NCBI RefSeq assembly: GCF_046119375.1
Contig: NW_027362762.1
Span: forward strand, 168,392,001 to 168,456,000
Direction: 5' to 3'
DNA length: 64,000 bases
DNA from: Phyllobates terribilis
Taxonomy: Eukaryota
This document shows positions 8,423 through 13,346 of this stretch, in pieces (positions within the stretch are counted from its first letter, which is position 1; the number at the start of each line of letters is the position of its first letter). Below the pieces are notes generated by a model. It was not told where the DNA came from. It saw only the letters and a program-made list of their open reading frames with translations, and ran no database searches. A program made the position numbers and the translations under genes.

Positions 8423-9617
8423 TGACGCGCCCCCTGGGACATATTCCTTTTTGAGGGGAATACCCGGCACCGGATCAGATGGGGGGTTGTAGTCTCCGAG
8501 CGGCTGTGACCCGGCCCGTGCCCAGGGCGTCAAACTCAGTGTTATGTGGCAGTCCTTACTGATGTTATTAAGAGTTCTTTTGTGTCGACTACGCCACCCG
8601 TTGTGATGCGGTCACTGTGGCCGCCGCTGCAGCAGGGTCCGCTGAGGCTGATGGTGGGTGCGCAGCTTGGTGGGATAACCCCCAACGGGAGGGGTATAGC
8701 CTCAGGGGGGACAGGTGCAGAGGATGGGGGTTGTGGTGGTGCAGTGCAGACGGCAATGAAGACAGAGTCGGGTTGTGCAGTTAAGGGTGTTTACTTACTG
8801 CAGATGTTGTACTGGTCACTCCAGCTTCGAGTGACCACCCGAGCCGTGCTGCGTCCACCAGGTCCTGGATCCAGCCAACCCCCAAACAAGTCCGGAGCGT
8901 GGCCCTGAGCTCTCCTTCTGTCCCGTTCTCTGGCCGTCCCCACCAGTGATCCACCTAGGTCCAGCTCCCTCGGGCCTCCTGTTGGGACACCCTTGGCCTT
9001 GGGTTCCCTGACCCTTCATGTGGTGTGCCTTCGGGGTGGATGTGATGGGTGGCCGTGGCAGACGCTGCCCACGGCCTCCGGTCTCTGGCTAGGGTGTGTT
9101 TTCTGCCCCCACCAGCTTGGGATCCGGTACCCTGTGCCGACTCTTCACCCGGGGATTTAAGTTGGGATCTTGGAGTCCTTTTCTGCTGTTTCCCCCTCTG
9201 GGTCTCTCTCTCTCTTCTCCTCTCTCACTCTGGGTCTTTCTTCTCTGCTCTCAGACTTCCTCTCTGCATCTGACCCTGTTCTTAGTTGGTGCCCACCTTA
9301 TATACACCCTCTATGTGTGAGCTCAGGTGACCAGCACCCAATGAGCTCCTATCTTTACCCAGGCTGCTCCCCCTATCTGCCCCTACACTACTTGGGATGT
9401 ACCACCCCCCTCCCACTCCAGCCAGGAACAGACTCGGTCGTACCTGCACATTTCTAAGTGGGAGTACCGTCGGTCTGCTCCTCAGAAATGGGATGTGTGT
9501 AGTGCATGCAGCCTACCGAGCTCAGTTCCACTCTCCATCCTTGCCCGGGAGTGGAATATCACACCTCTGGGTTGAGGTGCAATACCCCTGTAGCAGCCGA
9601 ATCCTCAGGGTGCTACA
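8423..9617 (-). repeat. 3' LTR of CSD-LTR element 1
   Basis: Direct repeat of 12152-13346 (offset 3729). Minus strand starts TGTAGCACCC and ends GGCGCGTCA. One substitution seen (C8470 vs T12199). Confidence 0.95.
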
Positions 9618-9629
9618 TTCCCCCCTGGT
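9618..9629 (-). promoter_or_regulatory. Polypurine tract (ACCAGGGGGGAA), element 1
   Basis: Directly abuts the TG of the 3' LTR on the minus strand; identical in all three elements. Confidence 0.9.
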
Positions 9630-10062
9630 AAATCACAGCACGTCCTCGGGCTGTAAGACATAAATAACACCAAAACATACATTTTTTTTTTTTTTCATAA
9701 ACATATAAAACAACATATATTAGCAAATAAAACATTCTCGTCGCCTCTGGCTCCTCCTCCGGTCACTGTGCAACGTGTGACCGGGTAAAGTGCGACAGTC
9801 TCTCTGGACAACTGGTTCTCCTATAAAACCAGTAGGGGGCGCTTTAGGAAGCGCAACTATATACAGGGGAAGTTGGCCGCTCTCAGTCCTCGGCCAGGTA
9901 AAGGGAAGGGAATGGCTGCTCACAGTCCTCAGCCTGGTATGGATTACGGAATAACGGGTGAACAGTTCACTCATGCTGGTCCCAACGGGGACTATATATA
10001 TGTAGCAACAGTTTCTTTGGTACCCGGTCGGGTAACTATTTACATCTACTGCTCTGCCGCAC

Positions 10063-11892
10063 TCAACGGCGTCTTCCTCCTGCTCTTTGCTTGTAGCTGG
10101 TTGTAGCTTCAGACCCGTCCGGGTCCTCTTGCTCCTCCTCCTCGCACCGCAACTCCTCCTCCGTCAGGCGGTGTACGTGGAGGGCGTAAGGTCCTTTGGC
10201 ACACTTGTGCCGGGTAAAGGTGACCTCGTCTCCGATGTAGAGGTCACGACCTCTGTGCCCCTCCGGCAGATGGGACTCCACGTCTCTGCGCGTGACAAAG
10301 ACGTCGCCTGGGGTGTTGTTGTCTCTGATGAAGCCCCACCCATGCTGCTGGTTGAACTTGATCACTGTCCCGATGGTGCGGGGACAATGCGCTGCACGGG
10401 GGTCCCTCCTGGTCCGGCTCTTCTGCTCGGCGCTCCTTATTTGGGCCTGTTGTTCCCGGACCCGCCTCTCTCTCCGCTCCCTCGCGAACTCTTCGAGCTG
10501 CTGTCGGCAACACTCAGCGCGCTCTGCTGCAGCTGCCCTGGTTTCCTGAGTGAACCCCATTAGGTCTTCTCCGGTGGGGTCCCACTCAAACTGTGCTTCC
10601 GCTAGCGGGGGCGAGACCCGTGCCACGGGCTTCGGAGCCGGAATCAGGGGTTCATCCAGGGGTCTTAGTCTCTGCTGCCGTTCCAGCTCATGGTATTCTT
10701 CGGGCCAGATGAAGGGCCGCCCGTCCGGCCATGTGAGCTGGCTGAACAAGTCCTCCCCCAGGTGTGGCACCCTTGGTTTTACGGGCGCGGGCGCGGTGGT
10801 GGTGGCGCCCGGGTTACCCAGGCCTTGCGGCCAGGCCTGGGGCACCTGGAAGGTGAAGGGCACCGTTAGGACGGCGGCGCCCTGGGCTACCTGGCCTTGC
10901 GGCCAGGCCGGAGGCTCCGCGGAGGTAGGGGGCGCTGTTGGTGATGCGGCGCCCGGGGGTACTAGGCCTTGCGACCAGGCTGGTGGTATTTCCTGCTTTG
11001 TCACGCTCCGGGTCGAGGCGCGTGACGTCACAGGGGTCGCTGCGGCGGCTTCCGGTCGGGGCCTAGTCCATAGCGGTGACATGGCGGCTACGGGCACAGC
11101 AGGGGGACTTTCGGGCTCTGCGACGGGGAGCTGGGGCAGGTGGGCGGTTTCCCGGCTTGGGGTATAGGCGTCCCCTTTACCTGCCTCCATGCGTTCGGCT
11201 CCCTTCTCGGCGCCGTCTTCAGCCTTTGGTCCTCCCGCGCCATCCTCAGAGGCGGTCTGTTTCCTCTTCCAGGGTAGCGTGCTCCGTTGACTGGTCTCAG
11301 CTTGCTGGGCCATCTCCCGGCTCCATTCCGCCAATATCTCGCGCTGTACCCGGGCCATCCTCCGTGCGAGGCCCTCCAGGGCAGTCTGTGCACACTCCCG
11401 GTCTCGGGGGAGCTGTGCAAGGACCTCCACTAGGCCTAGTGGGGTCGTGGTGTCTAGCAGGCTCCTGACCAACGGGTCGGTGCTGCTCTGCTCTTCTTCC
11501 AGCAGGCTCCTGGCCAGCGGGCCGGTGCTGCTCTGCTCTCCTTCCTCGGTCTTTAGCAGACTCCTGGCCAGCGGGCCGGTGCTGTTCTGCTTTCTCTCCA
11601 TATCCGGGTAAGCTCCTCCGCTACTCCTCGTTAGACCTCTTGCCTCCGGGTGCGCTCGCTCCAGACTGCTCCAGGCGGCACCCATCTTCGTTCTTTTCTT
11701 TCGTCTCCTCCCACTTCGAGGGCGGTCTCGGGGCAACTCGGTGACTGTCAGCTCCAGGGGTAGTTCTTTCACGCTGACAGACACCTCCAGCATCACAGTC
11801 TCTGTTGGTGGGGGCGGTTTCCACTTTTGGCGCCATTTTCTGTCCTGGCCCACGATGGGAGGCGGCCTCCTGCCCTCCTTTGGCACGCCCAT
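10063..11892 (-). CDS. 609-aa protein with C-terminal cold-shock domain (element 1)
   Basis: Part of the 702-aa ORF. The probable start is the Met of DAIM, which is conserved in all three elements; the upstream extension runs through PBS/LTR and is not conserved in frame. CSD at about 10165-10380: GTVIKFNQQHGWGFI..DVFVT..GDEVTF..GPYALHV. Confidence 0.85.
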   Translation of the reverse strand: MGVPKEGRRPPPIVGQDRKWRQKWKPPPPTETVMLEVSVSVKELPLELTVTELPRDRPRSGRRRKKRTKMGAAWSSLERAHPEARGLTRSSGGAYPDMERKQNSTGPLARSLLKTEEGEQSSTGPLARSLLEEEQSSTDPLVRSLLDTTTPLGLVEVLAQLPRDRECAQTALEGLARRMARVQREILAEWSREMAQQAETSQRSTLPWKRKQTASEDGAGGPKAEDGAEKGAERMEAGKGDAYTPSRETAHLPQLPVAEPESPPAVPVAAMSPLWTRPRPEAAAATPVTSRASTRSVTKQEIPPAWSQGLVPPGAASPTAPPTSAEPPAWPQGQVAQGAAVLTVPFTFQVPQAWPQGLGNPGATTTAPAPVKPRVPHLGEDLFSQLTWPDGRPFIWPEEYHELERQQRLRPLDEPLIPAPKPVARVSPPLAEAQFEWDPTGEDLMGFTQETRAAAAERAECCRQQLEEFARERRERRVREQQAQIRSAEQKSRTRRDPRAAHCPRTIGTVIKFNQQHGWGFIRDNNTPGDVFVTRRDVESHLPEGHRGRDLYIGDEVTFTRHKCAKGPYALHVHRLTEEELRCEEEEQEDPDGSEATTSYKQRAGGRRR

Positions 11893-12128: not shown

Positions 12129-12147
12129 AATCCTGCCGACTACGCCA
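12129..12147 (-). promoter_or_regulatory. Primer-binding site, tRNA-Ser (element 1)
   Basis: Minus strand TGGCGTAGTCGGCAGGATT is complementary to the 3' end of vertebrate tRNA-Ser (..AATCCTGCCGACTACG-CCA); lies 4 nt inside the 5' LTR. Confidence 0.9.
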
Positions 12148-12151
12148 AAGT

Positions 12152-13346
12152 TGACGCGCCCCCTGGGACATATTCCTTTTTGAGGGGAATACCCGGCATC
12201 GGATCAGATGGGGGGTTGTAGTCTCCGAGCGGCTGTGACCCGGCCCGTGCCCAGGGCGTCAAACTCAGTGTTATGTGGCAGTCCTTACTGATGTTATTAA
12301 GAGTTCTTTTGTGTCGACTACGCCACCCGTTGTGATGCGGTCACTGTGGCCGCCGCTGCAGCAGGGTCCGCTGAGGCTGATGGTGGGTGCGCAGCTTGGT
12401 GGGATAACCCCCAACGGGAGGGGTATAGCCTCAGGGGGGACAGGTGCAGAGGATGGGGGTTGTGGTGGTGCAGTGCAGACGGCAATGAAGACAGAGTCGG
12501 GTTGTGCAGTTAAGGGTGTTTACTTACTGCAGATGTTGTACTGGTCACTCCAGCTTCGAGTGACCACCCGAGCCGTGCTGCGTCCACCAGGTCCTGGATC
12601 CAGCCAACCCCCAAACAAGTCCGGAGCGTGGCCCTGAGCTCTCCTTCTGTCCCGTTCTCTGGCCGTCCCCACCAGTGATCCACCTAGGTCCAGCTCCCTC
12701 GGGCCTCCTGTTGGGACACCCTTGGCCTTGGGTTCCCTGACCCTTCATGTGGTGTGCCTTCGGGGTGGATGTGATGGGTGGCCGTGGCAGACGCTGCCCA
12801 CGGCCTCCGGTCTCTGGCTAGGGTGTGTTTTCTGCCCCCACCAGCTTGGGATCCGGTACCCTGTGCCGACTCTTCACCCGGGGATTTAAGTTGGGATCTT
12901 GGAGTCCTTTTCTGCTGTTTCCCCCTCTGGGTCTCTCTCTCTCTTCTCCTCTCTCACTCTGGGTCTTTCTTCTCTGCTCTCAGACTTCCTCTCTGCATCT
13001 GACCCTGTTCTTAGTTGGTGCCCACCTTATATACACCCTCTATGTGTGAGCTCAGGTGACCAGCACCCAATGAGCTCCTATCTTTACCCAGGCTGCTCCC
13101 CCTATCTGCCCCTACACTACTTGGGATGTACCACCCCCCTCCCACTCCAGCCAGGAACAGACTCGGTCGTACCTGCACATTTCTAAGTGGGAGTACCGTC
13201 GGTCTGCTCCTCAGAAATGGGATGTGTGTAGTGCATGCAGCCTACCGAGCTCAGTTCCACTCTCCATCCTTGCCCGGGAGTGGAATATCACACCTCTGGG
13301 TTGAGGTGCAATACCCCTGTAGCAGCCGAATCCTCAGGGTGCTACA
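12152..13346 (-). repeat. 5' LTR of CSD-LTR element 1
   Basis: See 3' LTR; followed by TSD TATA. Confidence 0.95.
13027..13033 (-). promoter_or_regulatory. Putative TATA box (TATATAA) in the 5' LTR of element 1
   Basis: GTATATAAGGTGGGCACC on the minus strand, about 315 nt from the LTR 5' end; same context in element 2 (26521-26527). Confidence 0.55.

Follow-up and report, generated by a model that had tools for sequence, protein, structure and literature searches.

A young long terminal repeat element of the poison frog Phyllobates terribilis with a cold-shock domain gene and no pol

Frog genomes are known to harbor long terminal repeat (LTR) elements that lack pol and carry a single open reading frame (ORF), those described being 1a11, xretpos(L) and lambda-olt 2-1 of Xenopus laevis (PMC4585706), while LTR retroelements with a cold-shock domain (CSD; PF00313) have been described among the endogenous retroviruses (ERVs) of birds, where repeated capture shows that this combination recurs (PMC12287698). 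An LTR element resembling both, here termed E1, is located in a 64,000-nucleotide stretch of the P. terribilis genome (assembly GCF_046119375.1; contig NW_027362762.1; positions 168,392,001 to 168,456,000 of the forward strand), hereafter the window, from whose first nucleotide all positions are counted. E1 lies on the minus strand (8423–13346; 4924 bp) and is one of three related elements in the window (E1 to E3), all on this strand. We suggest, with modest confidence, that E1 represents a genuine copy, less than about one million years (Myr) old, of a dendrobatoid non-autonomous LTR family which provides its own cis-acting CSD protein and borrows its enzymes.

The element and its gene

The components of E1, in the order of the element from 5′ to 3′, are:

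13347–13350 (no strand): target site duplication (TSD) TATA on the element's 5′ side; sequence match
12152–13346 (minus): 5′ LTR, 1195 bp; one mismatch against the 3′ LTR
12199, partner 8470 (no strand): sole LTR-LTR substitution; LTR alignment
12129–12147 (minus): primer-binding site (PBS) of 19 nt, the complement of the 3′ end of tRNA-Ser; oligonucleotide match
10063–11892 (minus): ORF, 609 aa, constraint detectable over codons 137–576; open frame, ATG in three elements
11284–11400 (minus): predicted helix of residues 165–203 with a zipper-like heptad hydrophobic pattern; model, and codon differences of 10/5/20 over 137–205
10405–10584 (minus): WD-x4-DLMGF motif and charged helix of residues 452–496, conserved; dN/dS 0.09
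10165–10380 (minus): CSD, residues 505–576; Pfam PF00313, Foldseek, dN/dS 0.06
9618–9626 (minus): polypurine tract (PPT); identical in E1 to E3
8423–9617 (minus): 3′ LTR, 1195 bp; LTR alignment
8419–8422 (no strand): TSD TATA on the element's 3′ side; sequence match

A first-pass annotation of the window had reported 1195-bp LTRs with one substitution between them, as well as a perfect TSD, PBS and PPT. Exact alignment gave the same single mismatch (C8470/T12199) in 1195 ungapped positions of two direct LTRs with TG...CA termini, and all three signals were found intact. The mismatch is not at a CpG site, and E2 has the base of the E1 3′ LTR there, which indicates that the derived change occurred in the 5′ LTR of E1. 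The TSD is 4 bp long, with 5- and 6-bp readings failing, and is weak on its own, since 1.2% of random pairs of local 4-mers match and TATA is common locally (4.7% of 4-mers). The PBS starts 4 nt past the 5′ LTR and is identical to the start of a tRNA-Ser template oligonucleotide (PMC3299991), and the PPT adjoins the 3′ LTR. As the ORF takes up 1830 bp of the 2534-bp internal region, there is no room for pol. The annotation of E1 as pol-less likewise held, with no Pfam match to gag, pol or env in 33 of its 45 frames of 70 or more codons (the other 12, which lie in the second LTR, being duplicates) and only the CSD passing the cut-off.

At a yearly 2.5e-9 substitutions per site, a rate borrowed from Xenopus (bioRxiv 10.1101/2023.11.06.565769), LTR divergence dates E1 to about 0.17 Myr (95% interval: 0.004–0.93), with 0.81 and 4.0 Myr for E2 and E3, respectively. 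This bears out the earlier claim of a very young insertion, with an upper bound near 0.9 Myr: E1 is recent on an evolutionary scale, of which polymorphism is not a necessary consequence. Positions 1–4910 of the window repeat 14246–19155 with one mismatch in 4910, beside a gap of 100 Ns (4911–5010), and probably represent an unmerged contig overlap or a second haplotype. If that mismatch is an error, about 0.24 errors are expected over two LTRs, and the one mismatch of E1 may therefore itself be an error; zero or one mismatch alike make E1 young. Given this repeat, a counterpart of the E1 site, filled or empty, is expected about 0.9–5.8 kb upstream of the window start; within the window no empty-site homologue of the E1 flanks was found. 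ERV1 elements of D. tinctorius are reported to span ages of 0 to 45 Myr (bioRxiv 10.1101/2023.11.06.565769), and Oophaga is reported to hold some 1 Gb of Gypsy sequence of low divergence, with expression in ova (PMC6278860). In the genomes of poison frogs, recent LTR insertions are nothing out of the ordinary; what is unusual about E1 is its gene, not its age.

The intact 609-aa CSD ORF previously reported was recovered as the single ORF of E1 (11892–10063), with an open frame, an ATG common to all three elements and a product matching PF00313 (34.4 bits; cut-off: 27; e-value: 2e-8). The frame stays open for 731 codons in all, and translation from an ATG within the LTR would give a 702-aa product; this start was rejected, as a 38-nt indel in the E2 leader breaks the frame and the extension is thus not conserved. 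Comparison of the E1 and E2 ORFs (Nei-Gojobori counts; codon bootstrap) yielded a dN/dS of 0.29 overall, 0.09 at residues 437–507 and 0.06 in the CSD (CI: 0.01–0.15). Differences in the CSD fall at the three codon positions as 4/1/23 (23 of 28 at third positions; P=1.5e-7), and as 9/8/28 before the CSD, 10/5/20 over codons 137–205 and 35/45/66 in the linker. The low dN/dS and the excess at third positions show that the gene was functional while the subfamilies diverged, and the CSD gene was under purifying selection during this divergence. No coding constraint is seen in codons 1–70 (11/11/10) or 71–100 (7/5/8), and on account of the former the protein may start at Met71 (11682).

In the AlphaFold model, for which the input alignment held nine sequences only, a helix with a heptad pattern is followed by a disordered linker, a second, charged helix and the divergent CSD; the mean predicted local distance difference test score is 53, with 358 of the 609 residues below 50 and residues 165–203, 452–496 and 505–575 modelled confidently. 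As modelled, the protein carries the five-stranded cold-shock fold. Foldseek aligned the domain with CspA (template modelling (TM) score: 0.88–0.89) and YBX1 (TM: 0.78), and all 43 of the PDB matches listed were cold-shock domains. No capsid fold was found in the model or among these 43 matches, nor a retroviral capsid among the 50 BFVD matches listed. Residues 1–507 gave no PDB match at e-values up to 10 and residues 60–215 no ESM Atlas match, and residues 425–590 matched generic bacterial CSD clusters in the ESM Atlas at 0.84–0.85, which is a lead only. The heptad pattern stands out most in E1, E2 and a single Anomaloglossus protein, the others showing it less strongly, and a homodimer prediction for residues 135–206 scored 0.02, informative neither for nor against. 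By alignment with CspA, the CSD retains GWGFI and DVFV of the RNP1/RNP2 region. As donors of the domain, CspA and YB-1 score alike (e-values: 7e-5 and 9e-5), and 2 of 11 branches are well supported in a tree of 14 rows, none of them a named Y-box or Lin28 protein. Pfam gave no match for a second, overlapping frame (MAPK...) that spans the leader and the beginning of the ORF.

Relatives, helper and proposed mode of propagation

The two further elements of the window are:

21977–26838 (minus): sister element E2, with 1241-bp LTRs (5 mismatches) and an open CSD ORF; ~79% DNA identity to E1
40607–45156 (minus): distant subfamily E3, with LTRs differing by 25 mismatches in 1264 columns and an open 445-aa CSD ORF; protein 39% identical to that of E1

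The common plan of the three elements comprises an LTR, a PBS, a short leader, one open ORF, an AT-rich 3′ region, a conserved block, a PPT and an LTR, and the pol-less layout with an open ORF is present in 3/3 elements despite protein identity down to 39%. The TSD of E2 is perfect (CTAC/CTAC), that of E3 matches at 3/4 bases (CAAC/GAAC), and the E3 insertion cleanly splits a long interspersed nuclear element (LINE). The E3 CSD scores 19 bits, under the PF00313 cut-off. The LTRs of E1 and E2 terminate in TCA and are separated from the PBS by 4 nt (E1: 12148–12152); in E3 (43879–43884) the LTR terminus is TCACA, the spacer measures 3 nt and the PBS has one mismatch. No solo LTRs were found in the window beyond the six LTRs of E1 to E3.

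A search with the single protein returned one match among 5205 candidates, from P. terribilis (87%), and two profile searches returned four and eight matches, with 8000 candidates scored in each. Seven of the eight are from P. terribilis, Ranitomeya variabilis and Anomaloglossus baeobatrachus, the other being a protist multi-CSD protein, and no Xenopus name occurs among the relatives from the single-protein and profile searches. Among 1.84 billion representatives, searched exhaustively, 516 matches were found, with at least six family members among the best 150 of the 516; five of ten matches inspected were generic multi-CSD proteins. On rescoring 160 proteins, 14 reached at least 70 bits (four from the window and ten from outside, seven of the latter already in the profile), with the next best at 41. 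Of the ten outside relatives, four probably stem from chimeric gene models, in which the further part is a Harbinger-type nuclease (two cases), R3H or astacin (one case each); the Harbinger-type joins, in gene models of two frog species (P0006, P0158), are probably annotation chimeras. Every family-level relative with a species name belongs to a dendrobatoid frog.

A 4-bp TSD and TG...CA ends need an integrase, and a helper thus acted in trans; a helper with reverse transcriptase (RT) and integrase must have been present in the germ line of an ancestor at the time of insertion. The first-pass annotation had posited an active autonomous helper, which stands in so far as one was needed at insertion, while its present activity is unproven and none lies in the window. 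In the rest of the window, 144 of 152 frames of 85 or more codons were scanned (seven of the eight left out being second-LTR duplicates), yielding pieces of Tc1 transposase, LINE-like RT and the E2 CSD. The RT matches (36575, 40453, 48473 and 48886) were rejected as the helper, since they look LINE-type, with one beside an endonuclease frame. Animal non-autonomous elements with a 4-bp TSD have been assigned to Gypsy helpers (PMC10886601), and a helper of Gypsy type appears quite probable for E1.

In the mode of propagation that we propose, E1 would retain its LTRs, tRNA-Ser PBS and PPT as cis signals, and would borrow RT, integrase and probably capsid from an autonomous, most likely Gypsy-type element. 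Following transcription from the 5′ LTR and translation of the ORF, the CSD protein would bind the RNA from which it was translated, and as an RNA chaperone or adaptor may shield this RNA, aid annealing of the tRNA primer or steer the RNA into helper particles. Packaging with the helper enzymes, priming by tRNA-Ser and integration with a 4-bp duplication would follow, and copies with a working gene would outbreed copies without one. Cis action of the protein seems fairly likely: by population-genetic reasoning, a protein usable in trans would decay, and sustained selection suggests cis preference. The role as chaperone or adaptor is put forward tentatively. A more elaborate proposal is that a satellite-like LTR lineage lacking both Gag and Pol has endured in dendrobatoid frogs by means of a cis-acting CSD protein, an RNA chaperone or adaptor through which the lineage's RNA and tRNA-Ser primer enter helper particles, perhaps via a second PBS-like word in the LTR; this is speculative and rather doubtful.

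Several points weigh against such a non-autonomous, cis-acting system. The proposed role of the protein, its binding and its packaging are deduced from sequence and model, and the CSD has other residues at three CspA positions that presumably stack on RNA through their aromatic rings, namely the Trp preceding RNP1 and the His and Phe that follow RNP2. E1 and E2 form one informative pair, as comparisons with E3 are near saturation (dS: 1.5–2.7), although the latter agree despite this (dN/dS: 0.37–0.39 overall). The homologues outside the window are known as proteins alone, and may or may not lie in LTR elements. The helper itself was not found, with no integrase, protease or RNase H in the 144 other frames of the window. 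Class I ERVs likewise make 4-bp TSDs, and a class I ERV may have been the helper. The frog class III ERV XtERV-S is described as using the same tRNA-Ser primer (PMC8278194); the 4-bp TSD of E1, against 5 bp in XtERV-S, argues against a class III helper, and the 5-bp TSD of an ERV-S/ERV-L-dependent element was not found in E1. Finally, selection may have acted in a larger autonomous parent.

If so, the CSD ORF would be an accessory gene of an autonomous Gypsy element or ERV, as in the CSD-bearing bird ERVs, with selection acting there and the copies in the window being internally deleted. We consider this unlikely, even though a pol-bearing parent could be missed, as transposon ORFs are under-represented in protein databases, and 46 bird ERVs, classified by RT, are reported to encode a CSD at varying positions (PMC12287698). 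The three subfamilies share the same compact layout without a pol remnant, and three matching deletions would thus be needed; no RT or integrase domain occurs in the family-level relatives listed by the two profile searches, which is weak evidence. The protein may otherwise derive from a Gag whose oligomerising helix was retained while the CSD took the place of its zinc knuckle, making E1 a gag-only element like 1a11/xretpos, MaLR or those of the TR-GAG type. The ORF does occupy the gag position directly after the PBS, and the pol-less 1a11 is described as encoding a Gag-like protein of similar size (71 kDa; PMC4585706), but no capsid fold, zinc knuckle or Gag sequence signal is present in the E1 protein, within the limits of a nine-sequence alignment, and this origin is improbable. 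A germ-line counter-defence factor or translation regulator, for example one acting in competition with the host's Y-box proteins or with silencing by small RNAs, would be in keeping with the post-transcriptional regulation of mRNA by CSD proteins (PMC12287698), the richness of Oophaga ova in Gypsy RNA (PMC6278860) and the second tRNA-3′-complementary word kept in the LTR; a diffusible suppressor would, however, presumably help broken copies equally and fits strong purifying selection less well, so that we give this, too, little credence. Highly improbable is a misleading identity of the LTRs, for which the first-pass annotation had named consensus collapse and gene conversion; an older insertion would then owe its near-identical LTRs to collapse or polishing of the assembly or to a recent conversion event. 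The repeat beside the N gap is a nearby assembly irregularity, and a single copy leaves some room for gene conversion, but collapse is unlikely given the 5 and 25 LTR-LTR differences kept by E2 and E3 in the same assembly, an ORF would stay intact with a probability of 0.02–0.08 at 2% neutral decay (~8 Myr; assumed indel rates), and internal CpG observed/expected is 0.76 in E1 against 0.35–0.49 in the flanks, though similar in E2 (0.76) and E3 (0.68).

Candidate signals and neighboring repeats

Further features of E1, all on the minus strand and of a candidate nature where so worded, are:

13026–13071: candidate TATA-box-like site (13026–13033) and inverted CCAAT (13067–13071); in E1 and E2, not E3; resemblance to consensus
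12519–12527: conserved candidate site, read either as a splice donor (GTRAGT) or as a variant poly(A) signal (AGTAAA); a single instance in each LTR of E1 to E3
12315–12327, copy at 8586–8598: second PBS-like word, 13 nt, holding the first 11 nt of the PBS; in the LTRs of E1 to E3
11893–12128: leader, non-coding, in which TTCCCGCC occurs five times, in part as a tandem repeat of ~20 nt; word counts
9627–9670: candidate pyrimidine tract and CAG, splice-acceptor-like, followed by the conserved block before the PPT

The 13-nt word, about 165 nt before the LTR end, is the longest exact word common to the three LTR subfamilies, and is also found at 25752–25764 in E2 and 44039–44051 in E3. Eleven nucleotides correspond to the tRNA acceptor stem plus NCCA. 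A B-box-like word in the LTRs of E1 and E2 is not kept in E3, the window has no Rfam match at gathering scores, and folding of the U5-PBS RNA revealed no special structure (z=-0.29). By a crude score, the GTRAGT site is outside the top six donors of E1 and E2, and by an ad hoc score the acceptor-like site ranks first in E1 (1/179), E2 (1/194) and E3 (1/147). The acceptor-like sites are at 9651–9670, 23251–23270 and 41907–41926, with a second candidate at the matching leader positions 11968 in E1 and 25414 in E2.

Five TTCCCGCC and five CGCCAT words occur in 11680–12132, against 0.04 and 0.17 expected, and partly form one tandem repeat; they presumably resemble E2F and YY1 sites, and E3 is without TTCCCGCC words. 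A 68-bp block (11795–11862, 25282–25349 and 43646–43713), located where coding constraint is absent, is 82–84% conserved between E1/E2 and E3; it may serve in packaging or regulation, and it also opens the second frame (MAPK...).

Other repeats in the window include Tc1-type DNA transposons at 13646–15227 and 45459–47092, with terminal inverted repeats 89% and 98.5% identical, respectively, and transposase pieces. LINE-type RT remnants lie at 36575–37678, at 39574–40596 and 45157–45270 (split by E3), and at 47893–50593 (with an endonuclease frame). Broken frames at 52532–55850 on the minus strand, without a Pfam match at the thresholds used, are DIRS-like in what we take to be tyrosine recombinase and RT-like motifs, and degenerate tandem repeat arrays are located at 57767–59086 and 61971–63032.

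Comparison with known systems

Non-autonomous LTR elements are usually non-coding or keep Gag, whereas the E1 type keeps a CSD protein only. Long-lived pol-less LTR families with one ORF, mobilised by an autonomous relative, are also known from mammals as MaLR, but there the ORF is thought to be Gag-derived, the helper is ERV-L, the TSD is 5 bp and there is no CSD. TRIMs (terminal-repeat retrotransposons in miniature), including Helenus, resemble E1 in being non-autonomous, in keeping a PBS and PPT, and, in animals, in a 4-bp TSD and an inferred Gypsy helper; they are described as non-coding and below about 1 kb (PMC10886601), whereas E1 is 4.9 kb long and coding, with a selected ORF. The LTR word of E1 matches 11 nt of the tRNA 3′ end only, and is probably not a tRNA-derived promoter region with A and B boxes such as that described for TRIMs and Helenus. 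The frog element XtERV-S shares with E1 the same 19-nt tRNA-Ser PBS and identical or near-identical LTRs, and differs in possessing gag, pol and env, LTRs of 705 bp and TSDs of 5 bp (PMC8278194).

Among the pol-less frog elements, the 1a11 protein is described as Gag-like, xretpos is described as using tRNA-Arg, and these elements are supposed to be no longer mobile (PMC4585706). E1, with a CSD but no capsid signal, a tRNA-Ser primer and a recent insertion, is set apart from 1a11 and xretpos by their descriptions only. The bird ERVs were found and classified by their RT (ERV-A/B, ERV-G), and two of their CSDs are described as host-like (e-values: 9e-26 and 8e-24; PMC12287698), while E1 is without RT and has a far diverged CSD (e-value: 2e-8) as its sole gene. 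Three full copies in 64 kb suggest that the family may form a sizeable share of the unclassified LTR fraction of the giant genomes of poison frogs, although one window gives no genome-wide share; 66,046 LTR elements of D. tinctorius are listed as 'Unknown' (bioRxiv 10.1101/2023.11.06.565769). An element without Gag and Pol, whose sole gene is a divergent, selected CSD, has no description in the literature searched, the scope of which excluded Repbase, Dfam and most subscription journals, where the family may already be catalogued. If the satellite-like proposal is true, the sole gene of such a non-autonomous LTR element would encode a non-retroviral protein on which the spread of the element depends. 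The family also offers a natural setting in which to examine cis preference during LTR retrotransposition and the reasons for the repeated capture of CSDs by retroelements. Pol-less frog LTR elements and CSD capture by bird ERVs are thus each already known, and it is their combination in E1 that is new as far as the literature was searched.

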